Of a stretch of 64,000 nucleotides of DNA, positions 292 to 16,319 are shown one piece after another. This DNA comes from an uncultured bacterium. Its GTDB lineage: Bacteria > Patescibacteriota > Gracilibacteria > BD1-5 > UBA2023. How positions within the stretch are numbered: position 1 is the stretch's first letter; the number at the start of each line of letters is the position of its first letter. The notes below the pieces were generated by a model. It searched no databases. It worked only from the letters and a program-made list of their open reading frames with translations, and was not told the DNA's origin. The DNA lies in the NCBI GenBank assembly GCA_903908595.1, contig CAIVSN010000142.1, forward strand, positions 13,315 through 77,314. Reading direction: 5' to 3'. The translations under genes were made by a program, and so were the position numbers.

Positions 292-2220
292 TTAGTCGCT
301 CGTCGCTCCGCCACCGCCATATCCCCCGCCGCCGCCGGAATTCCAGTCCGTGGAATGGCTTGTCGATGCTATGCTCGTAATATTCGCTAGAGCAAATCGG
401 GCTTCTTCTTCCTGACGGAGCTTCCGGTCGTCTTCTTCCTGTTTTCTTCGGATTTCATCGCGTTTCTTGCGATGTTCCATTAGGCCTTCTTCAACGATCA
501 AAATGGCCAGCTCCGATCCCAGCTCCGAATATTCTTTCATCCGGGCGAATTCCGAATCGAATATTTGAAACCGTTCCCGAATGGACTCTATGTCAATTTT
601 TTGAGCATGGAGTTCCGATATGGTATCGAGGGTTTCATTCAGCCGTTCCGAGGATTCCGAAATATCGTAATCGGAAAAATTCCGGTTTCCGGTTTTTTTC
701 ATATAGGCAAGGGCAACCGATTGAAAATCGCTTCCTGGCCGTATTTCCACGATTTTTTTCCTTTTTAGCGCGACTTCGGAAGGAATCGCGTGAAACCAAT
801 TGATTTCGTCGACCATCATGTTCGTGGCATCGGAAAGCATACGTGACAGGCTTTTGCCCGTCAGGAACAAAATTCTCAATTCGGGAACGTCCTTGTCCCG
901 ATACGCGTTCCGAAAAGCTTTCGCGAACGTCGGCACCTGTTCTTCCAGATCGCTCCAGGAGATACGGGGAACTGTTCCGAATATTTCCCTATACTCGACG
1001 ATTCGGACTTCGTATTCGGCTTTTTTCTTAATGAAATCCGATTCGATTCCATCGGCCAGATTCACGATGGCCATGTAGAATTTTCGCGATTCTTCCATCT
1101 GGACAATCGCCTCATTCGCGAGTTTTTTCGCTGTCGCGATACGGGTGAGGGTATCCATATAATTGCCCCCATCCGTAACGGCAGGAAAAACGATATTTCA
1201 CAACCGGTACCCCTGTCACTCCAATTCCTGCTGGAGCTGGAGTCCCCGGATCGTCAGGTCTTTCAAATCAAATTTGGCCAAATGCAGTTTTTCGTCGATA
1301 CGCGCGAATTCCCGAGGCCAGGTTGCCACGGAATCCCGTATCGAATCCATGAGTCCCCTCGTGATGGCTTCTTGGCTGGGATCATCGACGATGCCGTCGA
1401 CGGCATCGTCGGAATATGCCGACATGCCCCGGACGGCAGCATCGTGATCCGCGGCATATTGATCCAAGAACCAATCCGGATACTTTTGCATTTCGGTCAA
1501 CAGGTGGGCATACAGTTCGAATATCGCTTTTTTCAGGGACCTTCTCCGGGAATTTTTTCTCAGAACTTCGATGCCGTAATGCCCTCCGATCCCAGCACTC
1601 CCGAGCACCAAGACCACGATCGCTCAGAATCCGAGGGAATTGAGCAAATCCGAAGTCCGTTGGGCCGAAACGACTTCGCTATTGGGCACGGGGGAAGGCG
1701 CCAAACCGACCAGGTCGGGATATTCCCGACGAATGAGCCGTTCGATCTGGAAAGTGATATCGTCCAGCCGGCAGGATGCGTCCTCCTTCCGGCATATCCC
1801 TTCGGACTTGGAGTTTGTAAGGATTCGAGAGGATTCGAGATCGGTAATATACCTTTGGGTTTTTGCCGTCTCGATGCGGTACAGCGAAGGGATTTCGGTA
1901 TGCAAAACCACTACGCCGGAATCTTCTCACCGGTAGCCGACTTTGCATCCCTTGCCGATGGCATTGGCCATTTCTTCTATGGAACCGTAGCCGTACTCGT
2001 CCAAGCGATCGATGGTTACGACCACGACCTGGTGACGCTTTTCCAGGTCGACTTTGCGGAGGCGGTTCTCGATTTTTTGACGGATACCCTCCTTGACGAC
2101 GTGGGCAGTATCGACGAGCGGAGACGATGTGGGACATGGGAGGGGTTTTCCGGCAATGCCGGCATGGACCGTCAGGGCCAATGCGGTTCCCGCTACGGCG
2201 GATTTCCAATTTGAGTTCAT
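292..2220 (-). CDS. TPM-domain (YgcG-like) membrane protein, ~642 aa
   Basis: Four same-frame ORF fragments joined by TGA. Signal peptide, TPM-like 'LVDTAHVV...QVVVVTI...IEEMANAI...DSGVVVL...YRIET', one TM helix, C-terminal 'SGGGGGYGGGGATSD'. Confidence 0.75.
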
Positions 2221-2375
2221 GTTGTTATGATTATTCGGGGGAAGTATATTTAGAACGGTCAATAGTCTAATGGGAAAAGAAAAAAAGGCTATCCGATGAT
2301 TTTCGGCGAACCTTTTTGTCTCGTATGCCCCTCCCTCTCGGGGATGAGGCTGCTAGGGGCGTTGTTTTGGCTTAA

Positions 2376-2423
2376 TGGTGCAACCGGCGCGACTCGAACG
2401 CGCGGCCTCCTCCTTCGCAGGGA
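2376..2423 (-). repeat. att site: 48-bp duplicate of the tRNA-Arg 3' half
   Basis: Identical to 14460-14507; imperfect similarity continues ~50 bp beyond CCA (2326-2375 vs 14411-14459). Confidence 0.93.
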
Positions 2424-2450
2424 TTCGAACGTTTCCGGACGGATGTCAAG

Positions 2451-3329
2451 CTAGGAGTAAAGCCGCAGGGAAGAGATTTTCCGGTTGATGGATTCGGTAT
2501 TCGCCGTGAGGTAGATCTGGGTAGTCTTCACGGAAGAATGCCCGAGGACGGAAGCGATGTTGAAGATGTCCAGGTCATTACGGACGAGCTCGGTGGCGAA
2601 CGTGTGGCGGAGGCGATGCGGAGACAGGGGAAAGGCGAGCTTGGCCTTGACCTTGTCGAAGATGTTCCGGAGATTTCGTTCGCCGAGGGCGTAATCGTTC
2701 TTGGAAGGGAAAAGCCGGGTAGCCTCGGGATGCTGCTCCATCAGGACCTTGGAATAGTCCAGGAGGATCGGGAGGAGCTGGTCGCATACCGGGACGTTCC
2801 GGCCTTTGCCGCCTTTGCCGTTGCGGATGCAAAGATTGCGTTCGTAGAGGTTCAGGTCGGAGGGTTCGAGATCGAGGAGTTCTTTCCGGCGGATTCCCGT
2901 ATAGAGGAGCGTTTGGAATATGGCGAAGTCCCGGAAGCCGTTGAAGGTCTCGGGCTTGAAAACTGACAGGAGCGCGTATTTCAAAGCCTTGACCTGCTCG
3001 ACGGAAAGGGATTTCGGCAGTTTCTGGGGTTCTTTCATCTTGGGTATCTGGTCGAACGGGTTGAAACCGATGATGCGGTCCCGGACGAGATGCGCGCAGT
3101 AGGAGCGGTAGCATTTGCGTGCGGTGTTGTAGGTTATCGGCTTCCATTCGCGCCTGGATCATTCTGAGGCGAGAAGCGTCCGGAAGTTGCGGACGGTAAG
3201 GTCGGCGGGATCGTCCGGATCCATTCAGGCTTGGGGAAGGAGGGAGAAATAGAACCGGTAGGAGTAGAGGGTTTTCTCTCCTACTCATTCGTTGTATCTC
3301 TTCTCGGTGTAGAATTGTTCGAGGAACAT
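2451..3329 (-). CDS. Tyrosine recombinase / phage integrase, 292 aa
   Basis: TGIRRKEL, KGGKGR, HRLRHTFAT, LGHSSVKTTQIY; N-terminal domain recovered by reading three TGA as Gly. Confidence 0.93.
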
Positions 3330-3427
3330 TTTGGGGATTGGGTTAATAAACGAATTTGATTTAGTAACCTGTTTTTATTTACAGTTTCGGTGTTAATGAA
3401 CGGGAGCCCGGAGAGGGCGACACGGAT

Positions 3428-3483
3428 AATGTAGGATAAGTTTTATCCTGTGTCAAATTTAAAGTGCCACAATATGGCACTTT
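3428..3483 (-). promoter_or_regulatory. sigma70 promoter with upstream palindromic operator (int)
   Basis: TTGACA-17-TACATT; operator AAAGTGCCA-N5-TGGCACTTT at 3461-3483. Confidence 0.7.
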
Positions 3484-3937
3484 TTATATTTTCCCGGTTT
3501 GCTATCAGAATAGCAAAACACAAGATGTTGTGGTTTTAAGAGAAAGATCTATCCGGACGGGACACAAGATGTTGTGTCGGCGCCCGGCGCGCCGGGCGCG
3601 ATACGAGCCGATTGTTTTTTCCTGCGGAAAAGCTGACGATATAGCCGGCTCCGCCCGTTTTTTACCGGAATAGGAGGATATTGCCATAGCCTGCCCGGCG
3701 GGCACCTGCGGGGATGCCGGGAGAATTAGGGAAAGCGGAATGGCGCGGGAAGCCCTCCGACTGGAAGCGGAGGGCTTTTTTCCTTCGCTCAATGCTAGCG
3801 CGAGCTGCGGAAAAATTCCGATACCGGGGGAATCCCCCCGGAGCCCCCTGATGGAAGCGCAAGCGGACTTGCGGGAATTCCGGATCGGAACGGATTTCCC
3901 GTGAAGCCGGGAAATCCCGTCATCGGTGTTGGAAAGC

Positions 3938-3960
3938 AAAAAAAACCTCCGATTCGGAGG
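3938..3960 (-). terminator. Intrinsic terminator
   Basis: CCTCCGAATCGGAGG hairpin followed by a T8 run, downstream of CDS 3991-4584. Confidence 0.65.
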
Positions 3961-3990
3961 CGGAGGAAGAGGAAGAGGAAGAGACGGAAG

Positions 3991-4584
3991 CTATGCCGGA
4001 ATTTTAGCGAGCATGGGAGCATCCGATTTACGCTTTGCGGCTTGTAGACGGAGAATCATGGCTTTATCCCTGCTTAGGTTCATGAGCTGTACATGTACGA
4101 GTTCTCCCCTGGAATCCTTATTGACCCATAGATCGAAATCGTCCCTGGGGTTCGCGAATGCGTCTTCGTTCGCGGAAAGGATTTTATCCCTGAACCCGGC
4201 GAGATAATCGAAATTCTTTTGTCATCCGGTACCGTACTTCTTCATCGCGTTGAAAAGCTGGAAACAAACGACACGGCCATTTTCGTCATAATGGATAACA
4301 AATCCGAAATCGGATCGGTCGGGGCCGTCGAATATCCGGTTAATCCAAGCATGGGTTGCGGCCTTGAGTTCTGCCTGACGAGAATAAGCGCACTGCGGGC
4401 AAGAACAAGTCTCAACCCGGTCGAGGGAAGCAGCGCACTCCCTAAGGGAGTCTTCCATGACGGAATGGCAGTCTTCGAAATGGTAGCCGTCCTTGAGCAT
4501 GATCTGGTATCCGTCGGAATCCAAACTGACGTCGAGTATGATCTTGGAATATTTGCGCAGGGTATAAGGGATGCGGGTTGTCAT
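3991..4584 (-). CDS. Phage hypothetical protein, 197 aa
   Basis: ORF 4222-4584 extended through TGA to TAG at 3991; has its own promoter/operator. Confidence 0.65.
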
Positions 4585-4613
4585 ATTCGGGAAGGGTTAT
4601 TGAATATGCGTAT

Positions 4614-4669
4614 ATTGTAGGATACTTTTTAATGAGAGTCAAATTTAAAGTGCCACTATATGGCACTTT
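4614..4669 (-). promoter_or_regulatory. sigma70 promoter with upstream palindromic operator
   Basis: TTGACT-17-TACAAT; operator AAAGTGCCA-ctata-TGGCACTTT at 4647-4669. Confidence 0.72.
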
Positions 4670-4699
4670 TTATGTATAAATAATAGCATAGATTCGGGG

Positions 4700-5509
4700 T
4701 TACGCCGTGGCCGCTAAAGCGGCGCCCTGGCGTAACTCACCCACTTTCATGGGACGGAAAGGATGCAGCATGTCTGCGAGGGAGAGGTAGAGGGAACGGG
4801 GAACATAGATGTCTTCGGTAGCCTGTATGAGTTCTTTCGTATTGTAGAGGTAGCGGGGGAACCAGGGGTAAAAATTGAAGTTGATGCCCCAACCGATCAC
4901 TTCCGCCTTGTCGAAATCCATTTCCTCGGGATTGGAAAACCACAAGTCCTTATGCCATCGGATAAAGTGAAGCCCCCGGTAGTATTTGCGGTAGTACCCG
5001 GCGAGGCGGCGGAATTTGACGTCGAGTTCGAGGGGGTTCTGGACGGCCACCATGAAGAGGAGTTCGAGCTTCCGGGGCTGGTATATGAAGTTGAGGAGCT
5101 TTTCGTTTTCCCCTTTGAAATTCTTGTCGAAGTTTCTCGGGTTGAAATAGATGGATCATTCGTCCAGAGCGACGTTGAATCAGATATTACGGGGAAGGTT
5201 GGGGTATTTTTCGCGGAATTCCGCAGCTTTCCGGAGGTAGGCGGGGTAGAGGTGCGATTTTTGGGCGAAGAGCTGCTCACGGTCTTCCCAGAGGTTGATA
5301 TACTGGTGATAGTCGTATATGTCAGTGAGGATGTTTATGAGATCTCTATGCGACTGGATTTGGAAGTCGGTATATCCGGTCCAATAGTTGGAAATATTGA
5401 TGACTTTCGAAGAATTGGCGTCCCGGAGGAATTTGGTCATGTTCTGGGTCTTTCAGCTGCCGAACATTCAGAGTAGGATGTAGAATCAGATGAGGCGCAT
5501 TTGGAGCAT
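4700..5509 (-). CDS. Zot/pI-like filamentous phage morphogenesis ATPase, 269 aa
   Basis: Walker A G(TGA)MFGSG(TGA)KT, Walker B VALDEG(TGA), 'YQPRK', 'VAVQNPLELDVKFRRL'. Confidence 0.88.
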
Positions 5510-5609
5510 GGGAAGTTGGGTTATCGGTAATTGTTTTGAGGTAAAAAAGCGGCCCGGACCGTACCCCGAAAGGAATAGGATTCGAACCGCTTGAATTTGC
5601 GTTTTGGCG

Positions 5610-5942
5610 TTACCCGATGAGGGGAACGACGATCATAGCTATGGCGAGGACTATGACGGCGAGTACGCCGTTCAGGACGGTCGTGACGGTGAAGATGGTA
5701 CAGTACGAGGCAAGGGCGATGACTATGGCCATCCCGAGATGGTAGAACGTGAAGGCAAGGAGGGTGGAAGAGAGGTTGAGGACGAACGTGACGCCGAAGA
5801 CCCAGAGGGAGACCTTGGCCCATTTCGTGGCGTATCTCACGACGATCGGAGCCAAATAGCCGAGGGCGTCGAACGATTTGTCGACGAATTTCCCGAGGAA
5901 CGGGAGAAGGGACAGGAGTACGGTTTTTAGTATGGCGAACAT
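5610..5942 (-). CDS. pVI-like hydrophobic minor virion protein, 110 aa
   Basis: Highly hydrophobic, located between the pIII-like and pI-like genes as in inoviruses. Confidence 0.7.
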   Translation of the reverse strand: MFAILKTVLLSLLPFLGKFVDKSFDALGYLAPIVVRYATKWAKVSLWVFGVTFVLNLSSTLLAFTFYHLGMAIVIALASYCTIFTVTTVLNGVLAVIVLAIAMIVVPLIG

Positions 5943-5944
5943 GG

Positions 5945-8131
5945 CTAGTTTTTTGGCTTAAGGATAAAGTACGACGAGAAGAGTATGACCATTCCGGAAA
6001 AGAGAAGGACGAGGTAGTCCAGATAAGTAAGGCTCCCGTAAGGGGCGAAACCGGAATGGCCGCGAAACAAGTCGGATTCGTTGACGATCCGAAACCAGTT
6101 CTGATAGCGGACCCGGTAGACGATGCCAAGAAAACAAATCCTCTGTCATTCCTGTACGGTCCCCATGGTACGGAGAATGGAGAGAGCGTTATTTACGGGG
6201 TTCGTGAAGAGGCCGGTAACGGCATCAGGATACTTGAGAACGGATTTGAGGGCAGGACTGTCGACGTATCAGGATATGGAGAGGTCGATATGGAGGGGAA
6301 GAGAATCGGAGAAGTAAGCGAAAGACTTGTCGGGATTGAAAAGTTCGCAAGAACTACCGGGTATCTCTCCGAGAAACGTAGCGCCGGATTCGGAGCCGGG
6401 AACATATCAAAGGATGGACTGGCCGGAATACGATCACAAGCCGCCGCCGGTATACGATACGGCGCTCGATCCGGTAACGTTGCCGGTCATGCCGGTAAAC
6501 GTGGCGACGGTGTTGTTAAGCGTCATGCCCGAGAAGTCGAGGGAACCGGAAGCGGAGAGGAAGCTTTGGAGGGAATCGAGGATGGAAGAGTTGTCAGATA
6601 TGACTTCCGTAGGCTTGACCCGGCAATAAGCTCCGTCGGCGTAGCAATCCTGGAGATTCCCGCACGTGGTGGAATTGATCCAGGTACATGATTTGGTAGC
6701 GCTGGCACAGTCGATGCGGATGACGTCACCGGAATACGTGGAAGTACCGGAACCGGCATATTGCGCGGGATTGTCGATTTGGAGGAGGCAGGCGTCGCCG
6801 TCGAGCTTACAGTAGTGACCGTTTATGTCCTGGCAGGAGAAGTTGTTCGAGACGGTACGCCAAGTACAGGTATTCGGCTGGAGATCGGCGGAAGTGTCAG
6901 AAAGAGTCGTGACTCAGGAGAAAGTTTTAGGAACGCAAGTCTGCGGAACCGGGACGAAGGCGGGAGTCGTGGAAACCGCAACGTTCGTGCCGGAGCCAGC
7001 GGATCCAGAGTTAGAAACGGGGTTGGGAGATACGGAGAGGTCGACGGGTGAACCGCAAGCGATAGCGCGGGGATCGTATACGCCGGGTTCTCAGGCGCAG
7101 TAGTTAGCCTGTTTGGAATAGTCGAAACGGCAGTTCGAATACTGCGGATCGTCGCAGTTCATATCCCAAGAGTATATTAAGCCGTCGGTCATGCGGAAGT
7201 AAGCAGCAGGATTGTCGAAAGCGGTAAAATTTTTCATTTGGACGGGAGTGTGCCAAGGACCCGATTTGGAATGCACGTTGTCATGGACGTTCGAAACGAG
7301 GAAAGATCAGGATCCGGTAGTTGTCGGGGATACGAAAAAGGAAACGTTTCAAGAATACGCAAAAGCGGGGAGGATGACTTCGGCCTGCATGGACTGCTGG
7401 GAGTAGATACCGGATACCGAGTAGGAATAATTGAAACCGTCCGTACCCTTGTAGGTCCAAATTCCGAGGCCGGATTTCGTTTCCATATAGAGCGGGAAAG
7501 AAGCGGGAGGCACGTAGTCGGTCGGAGGTGCCGAAAGAGTGATCCATTGCCATACGTCATCGTACCACGGAACGTCGGGAACGGTAATCACGGGTTTGGG
7601 GGTGAGTAAGACGGGAAAAGCGGAAAGCGTCATAGTGGCTTTGTCGAGCTCGTAGTATTCCATGGAAGGACCCACGGAATTCGCAGGGTTGTACTTGATG
7701 ACGTTGACTTTCCCCGTGTTGGCATTTTTGTAAACGAAATACGGTTCATGGAAGACGAGGAAAAGTCAATTGGACGAATTGTATATGAACCTAGGGCCGA
7801 GAATCGGGGTGTAATACGCCTGTTGCACAGTCAGATCAGAATCGAGCGCCTGTATGATTTCAGAATGCATTTCGGTAATTTGCAAGGTCATAGGGTACGA
7901 AAAGCCGGGTTGGAAAGACTTTCAATCCAAGGATACGTTAGAGAACCAAGCTCAATTATAATTAGTATACAGACCGTTTACGAAGACAAGCGGGGTATGT
8001 CATTTTTGGAAATCGGTGGGATTGGATACCGCGTTGAAAGCATCGGCCTGGGATATGGAAACGGACGCGAGCGCGATTATGGCGAAAAGCACGAAGAGAG
8101 AGAAAGCGTAGGATTTGGCAAGGAGTTTCAT
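5945..8131 (-). CDS. pIII-like adsorption protein, ~728 aa
   Basis: Single frame once TGA=Gly. Signal peptide ending 'SQADA', Ser/Thr/Gly/Cys-rich body, C-terminal TM 'YLVLLFSGMVILFSSYFILKPKN'. Confidence 0.75.
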
Positions 8132-8143
8132 GGGTAGTAAGGA

Positions 8144-8434
8144 TTATTTGGATTTGCCGAGCTGGTATCATTTCGCGGAGAGCTTCCAGATGATAGAGAA
8201 GGATATCGGAATGAGCCAGAAGAGCAGGATGAGCATATTGTAAAAATCGGAATCGACGTAGTAGGCGCCGTCGTTGTCCTGGTAGCCGAGACGGAGGAAA
8301 TTCCCGGTGCCAGAGAATTCCGCGTAGCGGACAGCGGCTTCAGGTAAGGATATAACGAGATCGGGACAGTCGAGACCGGAGACGGAGGAGGAACCAGTGT
8401 CGAAGGTAATGAAGGTGCAGGTTCAGAGGTTCAT
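8144..8434 (-). CDS. Small single-TM virion protein (pVII/pIX-like), 96 aa
   Basis: Missing from the ORF track because of two TGA; C-terminal TM 'MLILLFWLIPISFSIIWK'. Confidence 0.55.
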
Positions 8435-8446
8435 GGTCGGATTAGG

Positions 8447-8596
8447 TTAACGGCGGGAAAAGAAGGAGACGAGCCAGCCGGCGAGGAAGAATATGAAGCA
8501 GGTGAAGAAAATCGGGACGATGTAGTTGACGAGAAAAAGCTGGAGCAGGAGCATCAGCTTGGACATGAACGCGGTAAGCAGGTTTTCGTCGTACAT
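8447..8596 (-). CDS. Small hydrophobic virion protein (pVII/pIX-like), 49 aa
   Basis: MYDENLLTAFMSKLMLLLQLFLVNYIVPIFFTCFIFFLAGWLVSFFSRR. Confidence 0.55.
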   Translation of the reverse strand: MYDENLLTAFMSKLMLLLQLFLVNYIVPIFFTCFIFFLAGWLVSFFSRR

Positions 8597-8656
8597 AGGC
8601 GGTTAATAATGCAGATTCCGGCCATCCGGGCGAGGGATGGCAGGGCGTCTGGACGG

Positions 8657-9037
8657 TTAACGGTGGCCGATAAAGCCTTTGACGAACCGGACGATACCAT
8701 AGACGGCAGCGAGGATCACAAAGTACTTTCCGAATTGCATCAGGACGGTCAGGATGCTAAGGGTAGCATTGATTGACTGTTCCCCGAGCGCGTCGACGTC
8801 GGCCTGAGGCATGGTGATACCCGTTAGCGGGGTATACACGGCCTGGGCGTTGGCTTCCGGGACGGAAACGAGGGCGACGACGGACTGGAATGCGTTTGTA
8901 GCATAGCCAGCAGGAGTTGCGGTTCGTACCGTAACGGAACCGAGGGCGGAGACGGCGACTACCGCGAGGGAGAGAGCAATGAAGCCAGCCTTGAGAGCCT
9001 TTGACGCTTTGATTTTTTCTACGAGAGAAGCGATCAT
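8657..9037 (-). CDS. Major coat protein precursor (pVIII-like), 126 aa
   Basis: Leader ending 'EANA|Q'; mature ~62 aa with acidic N-part, one TM and basic tail 'RFVKGFIGHR'. Confidence 0.7.
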   Translation of the reverse strand: MIASLVEKIKASKALKAGFIALSLAVVAVSALGSVTVRTATPAGYATNAFQSVVALVSVPEANAQAVYTPLTGITMPQADVDALGEQSINATLSILTVLMQFGKYFVILAAVYGIVRFVKGFIGHR

Positions 9038-9331
9038 TGGACGAAAGTGAGAAGTAGGACAAGGGGAGTATCCGCGAGGAGTATCCGCCCGGGCCGTCAT
9101 CCGAAGGTTCGGAGAACGAAGCGGGAGACAAGTTAAGATTGCGAGTTGCAAAAAAGCGGTTCCAGAGACTCTCGGGCGGGTTCGGGGCCGGAGAGTTTCG
9201 TGAACCGCTTTGATGTTTGCTCGTGTCAATTTCCTTTCCTTTAAGAGTGCGGGCTTTTTCCGGAGTAAGTATTCGTTACAGTTCCCGGTTTCCGACGTTT
9301 GTTTTTTTATTTGGAAGCACTCCGGCAGAAG

Positions 9332-9649
9332 CTATTTGGCTGCGGGAAGGCTTTGGAAGAATTCACGAAGCTTCTGGAATTCCTGCGGGGTGAAGTGGCA
9401 GGCAGAGACGTCTTCGAAGAATGCCTTGATATCCCAGGAGTAAGCCCGGACGGTGAGGGATAGGCAGACTTCGGGGATAGCTACCACTTCGCCGGTTTCG
9501 AGCGTGGTCTTCTGGGTCACGAAGGAATCGATGGTGAGGGTGCGGTCGGGTTTTCCCTCTTCGTTGAGGGTGCCGGTATTGAAGAGCGACTTGAAATCGA
9601 TTTTCTTGAATTCGAATTTCTTGACGAATTTCTTTGCAGGTTCGGACAT
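9332..9649 (-). CDS. Possible ssDNA-binding protein (pV position), 105 aa
   Basis: Beta-rich small protein directly upstream of the coat gene; function inferred from position only. Confidence 0.45.
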   Translation of the reverse strand: MSEPAKKFVKKFEFKKIDFKSLFNTGTLNEEGKPDRTLTIDSFVTQKTTLETGEVVAIPEVCLSLTVRAYSWDIKAFFEDVSACHFTPQEFQKLREFFQSLPAAK

Positions 9650-9711
9650 ATGAGAATTTGTAAGGAGATGAGAGAAAACCACAGACATTTGTTTTTGTTG
9701 TCTATGGTTGG

Positions 9712-9769
9712 AATATAGCGGGATTTTGGTAGGTGTCAAATTAAAAGTGCCAATTAATGGTACTTTTAA
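9712..9769 (-). promoter_or_regulatory. sigma70 promoter with upstream palindromic operator (structural operon)
   Basis: TTGACA-16-TATATT; operator AAAAGTGCCA-attaa-TGGTACTTTT at 9743-9767. Confidence 0.68.
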
Positions 9770-9796
9770 TGCCTATTTAGAAGGCGGAATATTGTT

Positions 9797-9949
9797 TCAA
9801 TTCTTGTAGTGCTGGAAAAACCAGATGAGGTGAGAAACCTTGTCGTCATAAGTTTTCAATTCCACTCCGCCAATTTCGATTTTCATATCGAGAAGTTTAT
9901 TGACAGTTTCGGGATTGAGCTTAACAGATTGTATTTTGCTTGCTACCAT
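9797..9949 (-). CDS. Small ribbon-helix-helix-like DNA-binding protein, 50 aa
   Basis: 'IQSVKLNPETVNKLLDMK...TYDDKVSHLI' strand-helix-helix pattern. Confidence 0.5.
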   Translation of the reverse strand: MVASKIQSVKLNPETVNKLLDMKIEIGGVELKTYDDKVSHLIWFFQHYKN

Positions 9950-10008
9950 GTAACGAATATGAGTATTCCGAAGAATATACACAGGAATAGTAAAAATGGA
10001 AGTGCGAG

Positions 10009-10758
10009 CTATTTTTGGGATTTAGCGGCTTTGGCTTTGGCGGCTTTGTTACGATAGTAACCGTAGTACGGGACGAAAGGCTTTTTGGGCTTTTCGTTGG
10101 AGCCGGGGTTTTGGTTGGAGCCGGGCTTTTCAGCTACGACCGGAACGAAAGCGGAAACCGCTTGGATGATCGCGGCGGCCAGTCCGGAGACGTCGGAGGC
10201 TTGAACGTCGGGAAGAGGCTTGACGGATTTCGCTTTCGGGACGTAAGCGGGAGCAAGGTACAATTCCTTTTCGACCGGATCGGAAATGGCGGATATCCAA
10301 GTTTCGAGCGGAAGTTCGGCATTGAAGTTGAGAAGGTCGGAATAATCGGCAAACCGAATATTTTTGGATTCGCAAAACGCCTTGGCATTGGGAGTAAACC
10401 AAGAAGTAGTTACGAAGACGAGCAAGCAATCGTGCTGGCGGGAGATATCGGATACCTTGCCGTAGAATTTGGCCACTTCTCATTCATCGATGTGATAGAC
10501 CGCCCATTTCTTGCACTGGACTATCAGGTATTGATTGGATCAATCCTCTTTGGACCTAGCGGCCTTGATATCTATCCCGCCATCGTCGAATCAGCCGTTT
10601 CTGTACGAGGAAAAGCCGTATTCCGGGAGCTTGAAGAAGTCCGTGACGTACTGCTCGAAGCCCGTGGGAGTGAGGCGGTCGACGAAAGAGGAGATTATGG
10701 TGGCGTTTTCAAGTCCGCCGGAAAACCTGACGAGGTCGGTGAATGATTCCTTGTTCAT
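10009..10758 (-). CDS. Mrr-family (Mrr_cat) restriction endonuclease, 249 aa
   Basis: After TGA joining: 'PTGFEQYV...DGGIDI...IVQCKKW...EVAKFYG...VFVTTSWFTPNA'. Confidence 0.85.
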
Positions 10759-10796
10759 GGATCCAGAATACCAGAATGTTTTTCGCAAGTCAAAAT

Positions 10797-11753
10797 CTAG
10801 GAAAGGGAATCGGCGTCGGTATCGGTGACGTGGGCGGGGCCAATTACCATCTGGATGAGCTTCTGGCGGGCTTGGATTCGGACATGGTCGGAAACGGTGT
10901 TCCCGTAGATGCCGGAAGAAAGGAGCGCGGAAAGGAACCGAGTATCGACGGATTGGGGCAGGCGGATTTTGAGGCGGCGGATTTCCTTGCGGTCCTGGAG
11001 GTCGAGGACGATGGAAATGCCGAAGAGGTGATAGGTTTTCGGTAACTTGTCCCGGTGGGATTCCGGGAAGTCCGATCGGGCTCCGGCGTCGTCATCGTCA
11101 GATTCCAGATCGAGCAACAGGTCGCGTTCGGGAGGATAGATGAAATCCGGCCGCTTGAACCGGTTCGTTACCGGAGGCTGACGATGGTATTCGACGAGGT
11201 TGTCCTTGAGGCGTGCAAAGAAAGCGGCAGCGTACTCGGAATCGACGGGAGAAATAGGGACGGCGGGGTCGCCGGAGGGTTCGTCCGTTTCGTCGAGTTC
11301 GGGTTTCGGATGGTCGAAGTCGTATTCGGCCTGGTTCGAGTACGGCGATTCGTCGGGATCGGATTCTTCCGGGGATTGGCCGGCAAAGTCGTAGTACGGG
11401 GAAAGCATCCAAAGGACGATGGCAAGGTTGGCCAGGACAAGGAAGAGGGAAAGGAAGAGTTCGAATTTGGAGTCGGCAAGGTAGAAACCCGCAACGGAGG
11501 CCAGGAAAACCGGAGCGAAACAATCGACGAAAGACAAGTCGAGCGAGAGGTCGCCGTTTCAGTCGGTCCAGAATTCCACCCAGTATTCCCGGAAGGAGAC
11601 CACCGAGAAAGCGAGGAAGAGAGAGCCAAAGAGTACGGCAAGGAACGGATGGCCGTTGTGGATGTTCGAGGTGATGGCGTATCAGGCGATAAGGCCTTGG
11701 GAGAAGAAACGGAGAATGGACAGCGTTTCGTCGAGAGATGGGAGCTTAAGCAT
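10797..11753 (-). CDS. Phage membrane protein with acidic cytoplasmic tail, 318 aa
   Basis: About four N-terminal hydrophobic segments then a D/E/P-rich region; two TGA read through. Confidence 0.65.
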
Positions 11754-11764
11754 AGGAAGGATTA

Positions 11765-12430
11765 TTAGTTTGGGTTTTGAAGTAATTCCAGAATCAGTTG
11801 ATTCGGAATGAGGGAGCGGCGTTTGTCTCCGGCACGTCAGAGGGAGACGATACCGGCGGAAGTACAGCGGGGGACCGGGACGTGGCAGCACGAATTCCCC
11901 GATCATTCCGGGGTCTTGTACCCGCACCGGGGTTTCGGTTGCCAGGACAAATCATTCGTGAAGATATGCGTTGGCTTGCGGTAGGGGTATCAGTAGGAGC
12001 AAAAGGTAATCAGGCGGGCAAATCAATCGGACCATTCGAGAAAATCGATCATTGTTTTCTGCTTGGCCATGTTGCCGCGGGGATTCTCGACATAGTATTT
12101 CATCGATGAATTCTTTTTGAGGTAATGTTCGATGATTTCAAGAGTCTTTTCTAGGATACGATCGCCATGGCGGGCTTTTTCGTTCTTGGCGTTTCCCAGC
12201 TTGTCGCGATAGAATCAGGACGAGGCAAAGGAAAACGTCGTGCAATCCGGGGATGCCCAGATTATGTCCGGACAAATATCGCAGTAGTCGAACGGATCGA
12301 AATCGAGGATATCCATGACGAGGTCACAACGATGCTTCGGGTCGATATCGAGGGAGATGACGCGCATTCAGAGCGATTCGGCAATCTTGCCGACGCACCT
12401 GGTACCGGCGAAGAGTTCGAGCATTTGCAT
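11765..12430 (-). CDS. Short DNA (cytosine-5) methyltransferase, 221 aa
   Basis: Motif I 'MLELFAGT', motif IV 'IWASPDC', motif VI 'YVENP', 'YRKPT'; broken up by TGA in the ORF track. Confidence 0.82.
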
Positions 12431-12597
12431 TATGCGGAACGTTCGAACAATACCCGGTTTATTGCCTCTACCCGGTTGAACGCGGAGATATCGAGGACGG
12501 TGAGTTTTTCGTCGATTTCGGTTTTTTGCCTTTTGAGACGTACCGATACGAATTTTGCCCGGACGTTTTCGGGACTTTTGATTTTGGAGGTTGGCAT
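12430..12597 (-). CDS. Small basic protein, possibly DNA-binding, 55 aa
   Basis: MPTSKIKSPENVRAKFVSVRLKR...; TAATG overlap with the methyltransferase start. Confidence 0.5.
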   Translation of the reverse strand: MPTSKIKSPENVRAKFVSVRLKRQKTEIDEKLTVLDISAFNRVEAINRVLFERSA

Positions 12598-12630
12598 ATG
12601 GGAGGATTATTTGTTTTGGAGTCATGCGGT

Positions 12631-12996
12631 TTATTTGACGAGCCTCTGGAAGTCAAGGTGATCCTGCGGTGGCGACTTTTTGCCGTATATCCGGGAAATG
12701 CCGGAATTGAACCGGTCGACTTTCTTGGCGAGGTTTTCATGTCTGGATTTGAGGGATTTCAAGTCGGAGAGCAGAAACATTTTGATAGCGAGGGTATTGT
12801 TTACCCTTTGCCGGACGAGGTTGAGCTTTTTGAGCCGTTCGTATTCGGCGTCGAAATATTCGCGGTCGTGGGTACCGAAACCGGAGTAGAGGAGCGCGAT
12901 ATCCTCGTCCGTGTAATCGGTCGCCAGGACGACTTGGATATCGAGGAGCTTTTTCGGGGTTTCGGTGGGATGGGCATTATTATGTGAGTGTGCCAT
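12631..12996 (-). CDS. Phage hypothetical coiled-coil protein, 121 aa
   Basis: Clean ORF directly downstream of rep. Confidence 0.6.
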   Translation of the reverse strand: MAHSHNNAHPTETPKKLLDIQVVLATDYTDEDIALLYSGFGTHDREYFDAEYERLKKLNLVRQRVNNTLAIKMFLLSDLKSLKSRHENLAKKVDRFNSGISRIYGKKSPPQDHLDFQRLVK

Positions 12997-13011
12997 ATCA
13001 GAAGGATAGGG

Positions 13012-14220
13012 TTAAGGATCGGCGTAAAGTTTTTTGAGCTGGTAGACGTCGGTAAGTTCGGCGGGGATTTCCTTGTCGGAGAACACTTCGAAACCCTTGA
13101 GGAGGAGCTTCATACCGTAGACCCGGTAGAGTTCTTCGAACATGGCGTCCTCGGACGTGTGTTTCCTGTAGGTCTTGAGGTAGCTGGTGGCCATGAGGAT
13201 GGAGCGGTTGAGTATCCGCTTCATCACGGCCCTTGATACCTCGTCCGTGTTGCGGTCGTAGTGGTCGGCGGTGAGTTCCACGTCGTGGACGTAGCGCTTG
13301 GACTCGGTGAGCTTCCAAATGTCGAATTTGTCGCCGGTATTCGCGTTTATGTAATCGGCGGCATCGGTTTCGACGCTTTTGAGAAGCGCGTTGAGGGAAG
13401 AATCGACGAGGTCCTTGATTCCCTTTGCCTTTTTCCGGTATTCGAGGCGGGTGATGGGTTTGGTGGACTGCATGTACGGCAGGTACGGCCGTTCGCCGAG
13501 CGCGACGATTTCGAGCTTGTTGTTGTCGATGATGTCGAGCGTCTTGTTGTAGATCGCGAATTGCGTGGTTTCGGTGACGGAACAGCGCCACGTTTCGCGA
13601 CCTTCGGTGACGAAGTTCTTGACCCGGTTCCGGTAGCGCACGTACTTTTTGAGGAAGTCGTGGCAATCGATGCCCTGGATGTCGAACCGGTAGTCGATCC
13701 GGGAAACGAGCCGTGGGACGTCGGGATTGAATTCGAGCAGTCCGAGAAAGTACGGCAGGAAATCCTGGTACGCCATGCAGAAGAGCCCGACGAATTCGAT
13801 TTCCGAAAATATTTTGTCGGGTTCGGCCTGCGGGATGGAATATTCGACTTCCTCACCGGAGAGGGGGGATATGGTCTTGATTACCAACGGCGGTTTGGTC
13901 GACGGCATTTTCAGGTGGATTTGGGCGATCATTTTCTCGGTTTCGCTTTGGATATCGTAGAGCTTGATCCGGTTGCTTTTGGCATAGCCGCGGAAGACGA
14001 GCCGGAAACCGTGGTCAAGAAACTTTTCGGCGTTGTTTTCCACGAGGCCGGAGATTTGGCGGGCGAATGCGGAAGTTTCAGAGATTCGGAGCGTGAGATA
14101 GTCGATGTTCTTGGAAAAGAGGGTGATTTTGCTTTTGTGAGAAGCTTTTTCCGGGTCGGTTTTCGGGTCGTTTTCAGCATGGGGGGTTTTCGCATTTCCC
14201 CCCTTTTGAGTTTTAGGCAT
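13012..14220 (-). CDS. Rolling-circle replication initiator (Rep_trans-like)
   Basis: 'NIDYLTL', 'VSRIDYRFD', 'FAIYNK', 'TRLEYR' motifs; exact start uncertain. Confidence 0.75.
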   Translation of the reverse strand: MPKTQKGGNAKTPHAENDPKTDPEKASHKSKITLFSKNIDYLTLRISETSAFARQISGLVENNAEKFLDHGFRLVFRGYAKSNRIKLYDIQSETEKMIAQIHLKMPSTKPPLVIKTISPLSGEEVEYSIPQAEPDKIFSEIEFVGLFCMAYQDFLPYFLGLLEFNPDVPRLVSRIDYRFDIQGIDCHDFLKKYVRYRNRVKNFVTEGRETWRCSVTETTQFAIYNKTLDIIDNNKLEIVALGERPYLPYMQSTKPITRLEYRKKAKGIKDLVDSSLNALLKSVETDAADYINANTGDKFDIWKLTESKRYVHDVELTADHYDRNTDEVSRAVMKRILNRSILMATSYLKTYRKHTSEDAMFEELYRVYGMKLLLKGFEVFSDKEIPAELTDVYQLKKLYADP

Positions 14221-14257
14221 TGGAATGCACTTTACTGTTTGTTTTTTTGGGAGTGAA

Positions 14258-14283
14258 CCACCCCCCTTTAACATGGGGGGTGG
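14258..14283. other. Candidate double-strand origin / nick hairpin
   Basis: CCACCCCCC-TTTAACAT-GGGGGGTGG perfect 9-bp stem immediately 5' of rep. Confidence 0.6.
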
Positions 14284-14459
14284 GAGAGTCCCGGAATATT
14301 GGTATTTTTCGTGGGAGCTTTTTTTGGAATGAACGAAAAAAAGTCCCACCCGTTAATTGGTGAAACTGTGAATAGAAATAGGTATCTTTGTATTTGTTTA
14401 TTTGCCGTCTGCCCTTCCCTCTCGGGGATGAGGCCGCTGCGTGTATGGTTTTGGCTTAA

Positions 14460-14537
14460 TGGTGCAACCGGCGCGACTCGAACGCGCGGCCTCCTCCTTC
14501 GCAGGGAGGCGCTCTAATCCAACTGAGCTACGGCTGC
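14460..14537 (-). tRNA. tRNA-Arg(GCG), prophage integration target
   Basis: Cloverleaf with anticodon arm CCTCC-CTGCGAA-GGAGG and encoded CCA. Confidence 0.92.
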
Positions 14538-14688
14538 AAAAACGCCCGTGGAGCATAGCGAATTATGGGTTTTTTGCAAGGGGAAGTCAGCATGACCTGT
14601 TACGAAATCAGTCTGAACAAAAGAAAACACCCGGATGCCACGATGATAAAGACTGGAAATCCCCCCCTAGGGAAACGAGAATCGAATG

Positions 14689-15486
14689 TTACAGCGGCAT
14701 GAGATTCGTGCTCACATAGCTCTTGACCACGTACCCAATTTCCGTGATCATGTTCGGATGGTCCGAGACTCCAAAGAACCTGCTGGAAGAACCGAGCAGT
14801 TTTTTGGCTTCGATGAACGCGTTATCCTGGCCTTCGAATATTTCCTTGGAAATAGGGCTTTCGGACTTGTAGAGATTCGGGAGCCGATTTTTACCGGGCC
14901 TGGCTATGTCGTAAATTATCGACTGATCCGTATCGGGATGCAAGACTATCCAACTGTGATCGCCCCCCTCGGCCACATCCGTATGGAAGGATACGCCGCT
15001 CATATATACGCTCGGGATGCCTATGGAGCGCAATATGCCCTGTCACAGGGCGGCCCGTTCCGCACATTGGGCCGAACCGTCACGAAAATCCGAAAGTTTC
15101 GGCGTGGAATCCGCATATTTCGCGTTCCGAATCCCAGTAGCGCCCGCAAGTTCGTCAGCTGCAATACCAAGTCGCTGCTCCATTCCGTTCTGAACGGTCA
15201 TGAGCGCGAAAAACAATTTGGGATCGACATTTTTTCGGACGCCTTCGGGGAATTTTCGATACCATACCTCGAAAACGTCCTTTCTGGAAGCGTAAAGTCG
15301 ATTCAAATCTTCTCATTTTGCAAAAGCCGGAAACGCGTCGTAATCCAATTTCAAATTCGTCGTAAGCACCGGCGAAAATATCGACCCTCCGACGGGCAGG
15401 ATGTCGCCATTGCGCAATTCTCCCCAGATTCACCGGTGGAGATGGGAAAACGAATGGGGTTGCGAAGGTTGGTTGATAGGGTTCAT
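14689..15486 (-). CDS. Transglutaminase-like (Cys-His-Asp) protein, 265 aa
   Basis: 'QCAERAALGQGILRSIGIPS...DHSWIV...IIYD' after TGA joining. Confidence 0.55.
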
Positions 15487-15546
15487 AGAGGGGGTTCTCA
15501 GGAAATTGCGTCCATGCTACCACGAATATTCCGTCCTGTAAAAAAA

Positions 15547-16150: not shown

Positions 16151-16227
16151 TGGAGCGGATAATGGGACTCGAACCCACAACGGCCGCCATGGCAAGGCGG
16201 TACTCTAGCCAATTGAGCTATATCCGC
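16151..16227 (-). tRNA. tRNA-Gly(GCC)
   Basis: GCGGATA acceptor, anticodon loop TTGCCAT, U73, CCA. Confidence 0.93.
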
Positions 16228-16240
16228 AAAAATGGACATT

Positions 16241-16319
16241 TGGAGCGGGGGACCGGGTTTGAACCGGCACACCCAAGGGTTGAAGCCTTAGTACACTCGC
16301 TCTTTTATGTTACCCCCGC
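16241..16319 (-). tRNA. tRNA-Gly(UCA), UGA-decoding
   Basis: Acceptor GCGGGGG/CCCCCGC with U73-CCA (Gly identity), anticodon loop CT-TCA-AC, short variable loop, atypical D-arm. Confidence 0.9.

Follow-up and report, generated by a model that had tools for sequence, protein, structure and literature searches.

The window analyzed here is a stretch of 64,000 nucleotides of DNA from an uncultured bacterium of the Gracilibacteria. Its minus strand carries three consecutive co-oriented genes between positions 12430 and 10009, an arrangement noted in a preliminary description of this DNA. Owing to in-frame TGA codons, as that description also noted, each of the three genes is split into pieces upon translation with table 11. 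In order of transcription the genes are:

11765..12430, minus strand, small predicted C5-cytosine DNA methyltransferase, 221 aa, six TGA codons read as glycine
10797..11753, minus strand, predicted membrane protein without relatives, 318 aa, two TGA codons read as glycine (translation, hydropathy)
10009..10758, minus strand, Mrr_cat PD-(D/E)xK nuclease, 249 aa, three TGA codons read as glycine (Pfam Mrr_cat)

The TGA codons are to be read as glycine (table 25) and not as tryptophan, because the methylase TGA codons of residues G147 and G198 fall in columns that are at least 90% glycine among 121 relatives, and because a tRNA with the anticodon UCA adjoins tRNA-Gly(GCC) at positions 16151-16319. 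The three genes are tightly packed, with 11 nt at the junction of the methylase and membrane protein genes and a 38-nt gap before the nuclease gene, and they have a common base composition (GC 0.51-0.57, GC3 0.64-0.72). Given this packing on one strand and the shared composition, co-transcription and functional coupling of the three genes in this phage are possible. The composition of the nuclease and membrane protein genes gave no sign of recent arrival.

An integrated element of probable filamentous type

The three genes are located within a 12.1-kb element that is flanked by a 111-nt direct repeat at a tRNA-Arg gene and contains an integrase gene together with filamentous-phage-like genes. 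The close phage relatives are two only, a partial sequence (L004) and a circular assembly of about 9.84 kb defined by a 126-nt terminal overlap (L005), so that statements on conservation within the lineage refer to few genomes. The other features of the element are:

2313..2423, left repeat copy (attachment site), 111 nt, 88% identical to 14397-14507 at a spacing of 12,084 nt
2451..3329, minus strand, tyrosine integrase (PF00589, E=1.3e-30; phrog_1, E=3.5e-40)
4700..5509, minus strand, 269-aa P-loop ATPase (GSGKT), likely assembly ATPase (28% identity to the L005 ATPase, E=4e-17)
5945..8131, minus strand, 728-aa secreted cysteine-rich protein with a C-terminal anchor, adsorption-protein-like (BLASTP E=4e-8 to a 653/730-aa protein of L005)
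8657..9034, minus strand, likely major coat protein of about 125 aa, signal-like N-terminal and C-terminal membrane segments (hydropathy)
9332..9739, minus strand, open reading frame of at most 135 aa downstream of the nuclease gene, real start probably further in
12631..12996, minus strand, 121-aa protein between the 445-aa protein gene and the methylase gene, no family match
13012..14349, minus strand, 445-aa protein of the leading gene, for which only the position suggests a replication role
14397..14507, right repeat copy, overlapping the 3' part of the tRNA-Arg(GCG) gene (14460-14537, minus strand)

The likely coat protein matched a 125-aa protein of L004 (E=1.5e-4). The P-loop ATPase had no Pfam or PHROG match, and the similarity of its L005 homologue to Zot (E=0.06, 13.2 bits) fell below the cut-off of 20.3. 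The start of the 135-aa open reading frame was placed further in because a promoter-like site, TTGACA-16-TATATT with 11 of 12 matches, is found at its 5' end (9739-9712). In the scan of positions 8500-14600 as a whole such sites were not above chance, with 5 promoter-like sites versus 4.0 expected and 10 terminator-like sites versus 7.9 expected.

The genes of the element all lie on one strand and are of similar composition, and the plus strand has a GC skew of +0.20 to +0.27 over positions 2001-14000 versus -0.07 to +0.11 elsewhere in the window. With a small coat protein having signal and membrane segments, a small circular relative and a one-strand gene order accompanied by strand skew, the element looks like an integrated phage of the filamentous type. 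The preliminary description placed the three genes between a replication gene and the structural module. The position is as described, but the upstream 445-aa protein is no more than a putative replication protein. This protein had no match in Pfam, PHROG or NCBIfam, and its comparison with the proteins in the replication position of L004 and L005 (BLASTP and profile comparison) and of Inoviridae sp. MW202486 gave nothing significant. A stretch of the form YNKxLD ... ITR(L/I)E, which presumably resembles a known replication family, is shared with the L004 and L005 proteins and is a lead only.

The stretch was present in four DNA sequencing runs of one lake-water study and no RNA run was listed as containing it. 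Contigs aligned over positions 1500-15500 showed no joints. Loose contig ends cluster near the tRNA gene and repeat, at 14458-14538. We did not find this phage group described in the literature on inoviruses of Gracilibacteria or Patescibacteria, and supplementary data outside that search may list it. A clearly bordered element that looks like an integrated phage of the filamentous type is thereby documented, together with two free relatives, for a small-genome bacterial lineage that reads TGA as glycine.

The small methyltransferase

The ELFAG, SPDC and ENP motifs reported for the 221-aa protein are all present. The catalytic residue C63 and motif VI (E115-N116-P117) are invariant in 121 sequences of the family. 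Motif I (ELFAG, residues 5-9) keeps only one of the usual glycines; E5 and L6 do not vary in the same sequences, and the conservation of F7, A8 and G9 is 90% or more. In motif IV the residue preceding the catalytic cysteine is proline in most of the family and aspartate in the four TGA-recoded members. Four Cys/His residues never vary in the 121 family members, and the cysteine-rich tail, also noted earlier, contributes three of them, C169, C181 and H183. With C144, the fourth, these residues resemble a metal site, putatively of the Cys3His type.

The AlphaFold model of the methylase had a pLDDT of 88 and a pTM of 0.87, and the best Foldseek matches were M.HhaI (E=1.5e-7), M.HaeIII, DNMT3 and DNMT2. 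Almost all of the matches listed were C5 methyltransferases (M.HhaI, M.HaeIII, DNMT1, DNMT3) or members of the DNMT2 family. We are confident of the C5-cytosine methyltransferase fold that the model predicts. The preliminary description remarked that there is little room for a target recognition domain, and only about 45 residues (approximately 160-203) are indeed found between motifs VIII and IX, of which residues 171-200 were modeled with low confidence (pLDDT 52-66). The invariant C169, C181 and H183 lie in this short region, so that the putative metal site occupies the place expected for DNA recognition.

Sequence searches placed the protein in a phage family. It was matched by phrog_757, 'DNA methyltransferase' (E=2.8e-17), and had 802 relatives at E<=1e-3; many of the 120 listed have a precomputed PF00145 assignment. 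PF00145 gave no match to the window methylase itself at E<=1, below the gathering score, and a whole-genome PF00145 search was also silent at the locus. A profile of 22 family members matched no PDB sequence at E<=1. Relatives in viral contigs were sought by alignment-based scans for both the methylase and the nuclease, and neither single sequence found one. Members of this large family are about 204 aa long, and phage records from Bacillus, Xanthomonas, Haloferax and Inoviridae label them DNA methyltransferases. Among 32 named phage records having the methylase (22 Bacillus, 3 Inoviridae, 2 Haloferax, 1 Xanthomonas and others) C5 or DNA methylase is the annotation in most. Our literature search found no experimental work on, or DNA methylation by, any member of this small-methylase family.

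The genomic context of the family is that of replication. In L004, L005 and Inoviridae sp. MW202486 the methylase gene lies directly upstream of the replication gene, which it overlaps or abuts, and the nuclease gene is absent. At 80 metagenome methylase loci another DNA methyltransferase gene is immediately adjacent in 15. Other neighbors encode polymerases, helicases, terminases and endolysins, and no Mrr-like protein was found among the 134 neighboring open reading frames. Hence, a minimal methylase is found beside the replication gene in small phages of the single-stranded type having at least two unrelated replication-protein families, which raises the questions of what purpose the enzyme serves in these phages and what so little protein can recognize. 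Four-base palindromes showed no clear avoidance in the prophage relative to the rest of the window (ratios of 0.67-1.46 on small counts). The host genome encodes at least three full-length canonical C5-methylases and therefore the host probably methylates, and perhaps restricts, DNA.

The nuclease and the membrane protein

The third gene encodes an Mrr nuclease, as first described: Pfam Mrr_cat (PF04471) matched residues 27-144 with E=7e-18 and 65.3 bits versus a cut-off of 21. Within its subfamily D63 and Q81-C82-K83 are invariant and E35 and D59 nearly so. Pfam detected no second domain and neither Mrr_N nor another modification-reading domain; no more than about 26 residues lie N-terminal to the catalytic domain. 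The argument that Mrr-family enzymes cut modified DNA, which had been used to set this locus apart from classical type II systems, is not transferable to this protein because it is a catalytic domain without a reader. Residues 189-210 form a hydrophobic segment that includes a glutamine and is followed by about 40 residues constituting a basic tail. Hydropathy alone thus predicts that the nuclease is probably anchored in the membrane by its C-terminal segment.

The closest relatives of the nuclease are 52-56% identical and also TGA-recoded. In our searches the subfamily was found mostly in TGA-recoded sequences and in the bacterial class of the window, and 14 of 300 related genomes carry it, each time as a solitary gene. 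The C-termini of the relatives vary (membrane anchors, HRDC-like, DnaJ and zinc-ribbon domains), which defines a nuclease subfamily with interchangeable C-terminal modules. A search of PDB sequences with the nuclease found none, and the only matches of the subfamily profile were at E=0.06 and E=0.39. The PADLOC check proposed in the preliminary description did connect the nuclease domain to defense nucleases (PDC-S02, 1.5e-10; mREase_IV, 3.9e-8; ZorD, 3.4e-7), the matches spanning only the nuclease end of each model (residues 188-330 of 334, 169-275 of 317 and 942-1059 of 1071, respectively). PADLOC gave no significant match to the methylase or to the membrane protein.

The 318-aa protein has the three hydrophobic segments expected of the membrane protein it was said to be (34-56, 69-93 and 95-121, by hydropathy), followed by an acidic linker and a C-terminal part of about 150 aa. 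The GC content of its gene by codon position (0.61/0.38/0.72) is like that of confirmed genes. Among 5.8 billion proteins only the protein itself was found, no relative was present in any locus examined and no PDB sequence matched. The single-sequence fold model was poor (pLDDT 46.8, pTM 0.29).

The three genes do not travel together

The preliminary description proposed that the three genes form one module, and stated beforehand that their never co-occurring elsewhere would refute it. Co-occurrence was found nowhere in the material examined, which comprised 146 methylase loci and, for the nuclease, 15 viral loci and 9 loci of related genomes. The nuclease profile, which very divergent PD-(D/E)xK nucleases would escape, matched in none of the 80 metagenome methylase loci (633 kb) and none of the 66 genome methylase loci (973 kb), and the methylase profile matched in none of the 15 viral nuclease loci (167 kb). 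The methylase was found in none of the 300 related genomes, versus 14 having the nuclease subfamily. No DNA methylase lay within 1.5 kb of the nuclease in the nine related-genome loci scanned (9 of 16 loci and 31 of 58 open reading frames, with flanks of about 1.5 kb). In L004 and L005 the nuclease and membrane protein genes are both absent and the methylase gene adjoins the replication gene.

Hence, a conserved three-gene defense module is not supported, and without joint occurrence elsewhere the locus makes a weak case for a defense system. What survives of the proposed defense or exclusion module of a filamentous phage is that the genes are cargo of a filamentous-looking integrated element and that defense systems use nucleases of this kind; the single module is not supported.

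Interpretation

We consider the best explanation, with a probability of about 0.6, to be that an orphan anti-restriction methylase belonging to the phage lineage is accompanied by nuclease and membrane protein genes that were acquired separately as passengers, the three not being one system. The methylase would be part of the replication or early region of the lineage and would most likely act on the double-stranded replicative form, and in the lysogen also on host DNA. Progeny DNA would then evade host restriction enzymes. If the packaged strand is methylated, the replicative form arising from it in the next host would be hemimethylated and protected. The stand-alone 249-aa nuclease and the 318-aa protein would have been picked up separately, and the likeliest beneficiary of these passengers would be the lysogen, with incoming foreign DNA being cut at the membrane.

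A methylase gene adjoining a nuclease gene is the classic layout of restriction-modification systems. The three genes might be a newly assembled exclusion device of this kind, in which the methylase marks resident DNA, the tethered nuclease attacks incoming DNA that lacks methylation and the membrane protein serves to position or regulate the nuclease. The genes are adjacent, co-oriented and closely spaced, the catalytic residues of the nuclease are intact, the nuclease and the membrane protein both have hydrophobic segments, and PADLOC ties the nuclease domain to defense. We nevertheless regard this device as unlikely given the lack of co-occurrence in 146 methylase loci, 15 viral nuclease loci and 300 related genomes, the retention of the methylase by the closest phages without any nuclease, the occurrence of the nuclease subfamily alone in 14 genomes and the lack of a DNA-recognition domain detectable by Pfam in the nuclease. 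A newly assembled pair would by definition show no co-occurrence elsewhere. Still less probable is the specific form of this proposal, that a restriction-modification-like entry gate for superinfection exclusion, composed of a minimal methylase, a tethered nuclease and a membrane partner without relatives, has been caught at its assembly in this one prophage.

The nuclease could instead be a type IV modification-dependent enzyme that attacks foreign modified DNA and ignores the methylation pattern of its own phage. The Mrr_cat and mREase_IV matches speak for such an enzyme, but Mrr_N and other readers are missing and the N-terminus is short, and with at least three host C5-methylases plus that of the phage an m5C-dependent nuclease would be hazardous; we think this quite improbable. 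Similarly doubtful is a role of the nuclease and membrane protein in the DNA traffic of phage or host rather than in defense, for example in processing replicative DNA or in degrading host or taken-up DNA as a nucleotide source for a small-genome bacterium. Chromosomal subfamily genes in related genomes do have varied non-defense contexts (next to DnaK in L087, fused to DnaJ in L089, beside a tRNA and an integrase in L086), but the nuclease is missing from the two closest phages and hence is dispensable for the life cycle of this phage type, and its sporadic distribution is that of accessory genes. Finally, restriction-modification pairs can act as addiction modules. An addiction pair that stabilizes the prophage by post-segregational killing, with a long-lived nuclease and short-lived protective methylation, has that precedent and the toxin-antitoxin cargo of inoviruses reported in PMC12328805 in its favor, but we consider it very improbable given the same absence of co-occurrence and no sign that either protein depends on the other.

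Comparison with known systems

Under the preferred reading, an orphan methylase with separate passengers, the locus differs from type II restriction-modification systems in that the nuclease and methylase genes are not linked across relatives. The nuclease shares the Mrr_cat domain and its D...QxK motif with E. coli Mrr and type IV enzymes, but lacks their N-terminal reader and instead carries a hydrophobic segment and a basic tail at its C-terminus. The methylase resembles M.HhaI, M.HaeIII and the DNMT3 catalytic domain in its Rossmann-type fold (Foldseek probability 1.00, query-normalised TM 0.47-0.57), although the identities are only 11-19% and the DNA-recognition region is much shorter and modeled with low confidence.

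Integrated filamentous phages offer a parallel in the dcm gene of some Pseudomonas Pf prophages (21 of 182), an accessory cytosine methylase discussed as an orphan enzyme (PMC7549136). The Pf enzyme is described there as being of the Dcm type with the motif CC(A/T)GG, unlike the minimal protein of the window with its target-recognition region of about 45 residues. A close likeness is to the phrog_757 'C-5 cytosine-specific DNA methylase I' proteins, such as those of the Bacillus phages Bcp1 and Deep Blue, the Xanthomonas phage Xoo-sp15 and Inoviridae sp. MW202486. The TGA=Gly branch differs from these in having SPDC in place of SPPC and a cysteine-rich insert that is 8-10 residues longer, and in the window a 121-aa gene stands between the methylase gene and the putative replication gene, whereas in MW202486, L004 and L005 the two are directly adjacent. 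The window methylase falls in the length class of the phrog_757 proteins (about 204-220 aa), has all of their core C5-methylase motifs and is 30-38% identical to them over 74-97% of its length.

The three-gene locus and its genetic code

When TGA is read as a sense codon, three consecutive genes occupy the minus strand from 12430 to 10009, which confirms the preliminary description; in the standard code each of them is fragmented. The methylase and membrane protein genes have an 11-nt overlap and the membrane protein and nuclease genes a 38-nt spacing.

12430..11765, minus strand: methylase, 221 aa, six in-frame TGA codons
11753..10797, minus strand: membrane protein, 318 aa, two in-frame TGA codons
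10758..10009, minus strand: Mrr_cat nuclease, 249 aa, three in-frame TGA codons
16151-16319, minus strand: tRNA with anticodon UCA (called SeC by ARAGORN) and tRNA-Gly(GCC), 14 nt apart

The TGA recoding assumed in that description was also right, and the conserved glycine columns together with the tRNA(UCA) assign the codon to glycine. Methylase TGA codons 147 and 198 fall in columns having glycine in at least 90% of the 121-member family alignment, and the nuclease TGA at position 56 is glycine in the correctly translated relatives of its subfamily alignment. The nearest public relatives of both proteins have tryptophan exactly where the window has glycine, and hence derive from organisms with a recoded TGA whose genes had been translated with this codon as tryptophan. 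The organism is a table-25 (TGA = Gly) user, marked by the UCA tRNA and by TGA in conserved glycine columns.

The surrounding element

A 111-nt direct repeat, whose copies at 2313-2423 and 14397-14507 are 88% identical with a spacing of 12,084 nt, extends into the 3' part of tRNA-Arg, and a tyrosine integrase gene lies just inside the left copy. All plausible genes between the copies are on the minus strand, and the plus-strand GC skew is +0.20 to +0.27 inside the element versus -0.07 to +0.11 elsewhere in the window. The encoded proteins include the following.

P-loop ATPase, 269 aa
Secreted Cys-rich protein with a C-terminal anchor, 728 aa
Multi-pass membrane protein, 110 aa
Coat-like protein with signal and membrane segments, about 125 aa

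These four proteins had no match in Pfam, PHROGs or NCBIfam. Two metagenome phage contigs, L005 and the partial L004, which likewise use TGA as glycine, encode proteins that match three of the four: the ATPase with E=4e-17, the secreted protein with E=4e-8 and the coat-like protein with E=1.5e-4. L005 has an exact terminal overlap of 126 nt, so the assembly is circular, with a length of about 9.84 kb; its ATPase gave a sub-threshold match to Zot (E=0.06). We place at about 75-80% our confidence that the element is an integrated filamentous-type phage, its family membership not being established by sequence. The 445-aa protein at the head of the prophage, previously named 'rep', keeps that role by position only, as comparison with its L004 and L005 counterparts gave no sequence support.

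Several other features of the element were observed. A 65-nt direct repeat (3423-3487 and 4609-4673, 85% identical) flanks a 197-aa prophage gene, and each copy has a perfect hairpin-forming stretch of the AAAGTGCCAC...GTGGCACTTT type; an origin, a packaging signal and a pair of terminators are all conceivable roles for the repeat. In the gap of about 270 nt past the nuclease gene, TTGACA and TATATT separated by 16 nt (9712-9739, minus strand) form a promoter-like site close to the consensus, which fits a separate structural-gene transcript, the promoter scan overall being not above chance. At the border of tRNA-Arg and the repeat (14458-14538) contigs from four lake-water runs show a cluster of several loose ends, and these may reflect other neighbours of the tRNA-Arg, from other strains or an empty site.

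The methylase belongs to a small phage-borne family

The Pfam C5-methylase model did not reach the methylase, which matched phrog_757 'DNA methyltransferase' with E=2.8e-17. In a search of 5.8 billion proteins 802 of 919 candidates were relatives at E<=1e-3. Most have a length of about 204 aa, and a precomputed PF00145 assignment is attached to many of the 120 relatives listed. The AlphaFold model (pLDDT 88, pTM 0.87; 121-sequence alignment) found, among the Foldseek matches listed, nearly exclusively C5 methyltransferases or DNMT2-family enzymes, including M.HhaI (E=1.5e-7), M.HaeIII, DNMT3A/B, DNMT1 and DNMT2. The 121 sequences show no variation at the catalytic Cys63 or at E115-N116-P117, and each position of the ELFAG loop is either invariant or conserved in at least 90% of them. 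Only about 45 residues, modeled with low confidence, lie between the last catalytic motifs. Thus, the earlier remark that the protein has little room for a target-recognition domain was correct, the short region being a family trait rather than a truncation. C144, C169, C181 and H183 do not vary within the family, and we infer that a small metal-binding element replaces the normal target-recognition domain.

The family is present in 32 named phage records, most of which annotate a C5 or DNA methylase.

Named phage records with the methylase family
Bacillus phages: 22
Inoviridae sp.: 3
Haloferax tailed virus 1: 2
'Bacteriophage sp.': 2
Xanthomonas phage Xoo-sp15: 1
PinkBerry-associated phage: 1
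Caudoviricetes sp.: 1

We surveyed the nearest ORF on each side of the gene in 80 metagenome loci (134 ORFs). Another DNA methyltransferase adjoined it in 15 of the 80, further neighbours were polymerases, helicases, single-strand binding proteins, terminases and endolysins, and none of the 134 ORFs was Mrr-like. Species-representative genomes of many phyla gave 66 loci (best identity 43%), and the window query found no copy in 300 genomes of the window's class. Given this distribution and these neighbours, the gene behaves as a phage gene. In L004 (574-2312) and L005 (5725-7460) the methylase gene runs into the start of one that encodes a replication-position protein of 349-379 aa, and in this TGA = Gly phage group the methylase goes with the replication region. 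The public circular Inoviridae sp. genome MW202486 (4,577 bp; L106 1854-3411) encodes a 30% identical methylase that stops 2 nt before an annotated replication-associated protein. By BLASTP the replication-position proteins of L004/L005, MW202486 and the window are mutually unrelated; the pairing is seen in three small phage genomes, whose replication-position proteins form at least two families not linked by BLASTP (L004/L005 against MW202486).

The nuclease and the membrane protein

The nuclease has an Mrr_cat domain at residues 27-144 (E=7e-18) and no further domain was detected; residues 189-210 are hydrophobic and precede a Lys-rich tail. The subfamily alignment shows complete conservation of D63 and Q81-C82-K83 and near-invariance of E35 and D59. 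A word-indexed search matched only the window's own fragment, and a HMMER search of 1.84 billion representatives gave 510 proteins at E<=1e-3, the closest being 52-56% identical and also TGA-recoded. The C-termini of the relatives vary, with clear membrane anchors in some and an HRDC-like end (a weak RecQ HRDC match, E=0.39) in others, and some genomic relatives have DnaJ or zinc-ribbon fusions. Searched against 300 other genomes of the class, the subfamily profile had matches in 14. Among these is a same-genus genome (G154:C39; L103 8161-10289) in which a full nuclease gene is followed by a tyrosine integrase gene and tRNAs adjoin, so this locus may be another small island. The window's own assembly contains a second, truncated copy beside tRNAs at a contig end (G000:C135 8401-8721; L084). 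Two tandem paralogues of 300 and 273 aa were seen in a related genome (G195:C7; L105 7079-8856).

In the membrane protein, three hydrophobic segments are followed by an acidic linker (about 45 residues) and then by a C-terminal part some 150 residues long. No relatives were found in the 5.8-billion-protein search, Pfam, PHROGs, PADLOC, NCBIfam, the PDB or the fetched loci, and the single-sequence structure model was unusable. We accepted the gene as coding because its codon-position GC (0.61/0.38/0.72) resembles that of confirmed genes in all three parts.

The three genes do not travel together

The preliminary description had proposed a single defence, exclusion or addiction module, to be refuted if the genes never co-occur elsewhere. 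Co-occurrence elsewhere was not found and the proposal is not supported. The nuclease profile had no match at E<=1e-3 in six-frame ORFs of 80 metagenome methylase loci (633,483 nt), in a search that recovered the window as positive control at E=7e-82 and that very divergent nucleases would escape. There was also no match in 66 genome methylase loci (972,630 nt), and the methylase profile had none in 15 viral-contig loci with nuclease relatives (166,684 nt). No DNA methylase lay near the nuclease in nine loci (31 of 58 ORFs scanned, flanks of about 1.5 kb). Neither the nuclease nor the membrane protein is encoded by the only two close relatives, L005 and the partial L004. These counts are blind to a pair assembled in this phage alone; composition gave no mark of recent arrival on the nuclease or membrane protein gene. 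The membrane protein is about equally well seen as a partner or regulator of the nuclease or as an unrelated passenger gene. The locus is best classed as a phage methylase of a known kind accompanied by two passenger genes specific to the lineage.

Possible roles and known systems

At least three canonical C5-methylase genes of full length, and further Mrr_cat genes, are present in the window's host assembly; given this gene content, the bacterial lineage probably has active DNA modification and restriction. That assembly (2.41 Mb, 186 contigs, contamination 5.02%; listed family and order relatives about 0.9-1.6 Mb) represents either a mixed bin or a genome that is unusually large among its relatives. 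The orphan methylase would shield phage DNA from host restriction, and methylation of the replicative form would leave marks on the packaged strand, presumably a useful step for a single-stranded phage. The nuclease, likely membrane-tethered, could attack entering DNA to the gain of the lysogen. As this nuclease has the catalytic domain only, the earlier argument from the cleavage of modified DNA by Mrr enzymes need not apply.

Three points are more unusual: the code-25 filamentous-type prophage, the modular nuclease subfamily, and a minimal methylase that recurs next to replication genes. We found no paper on the small methylase family and, in the portions of the literature covered, none on filamentous phages of TGA = Gly bacteria. 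Among Pseudomonas Pf filamentous prophages 21 of 182 have the accessory cytosine methylase dcm (PMC7549136). Orphan phage C5-methylases with very short motifs have also been described and are thought to act in anti-restriction or to feed further modification (PMC8256090).
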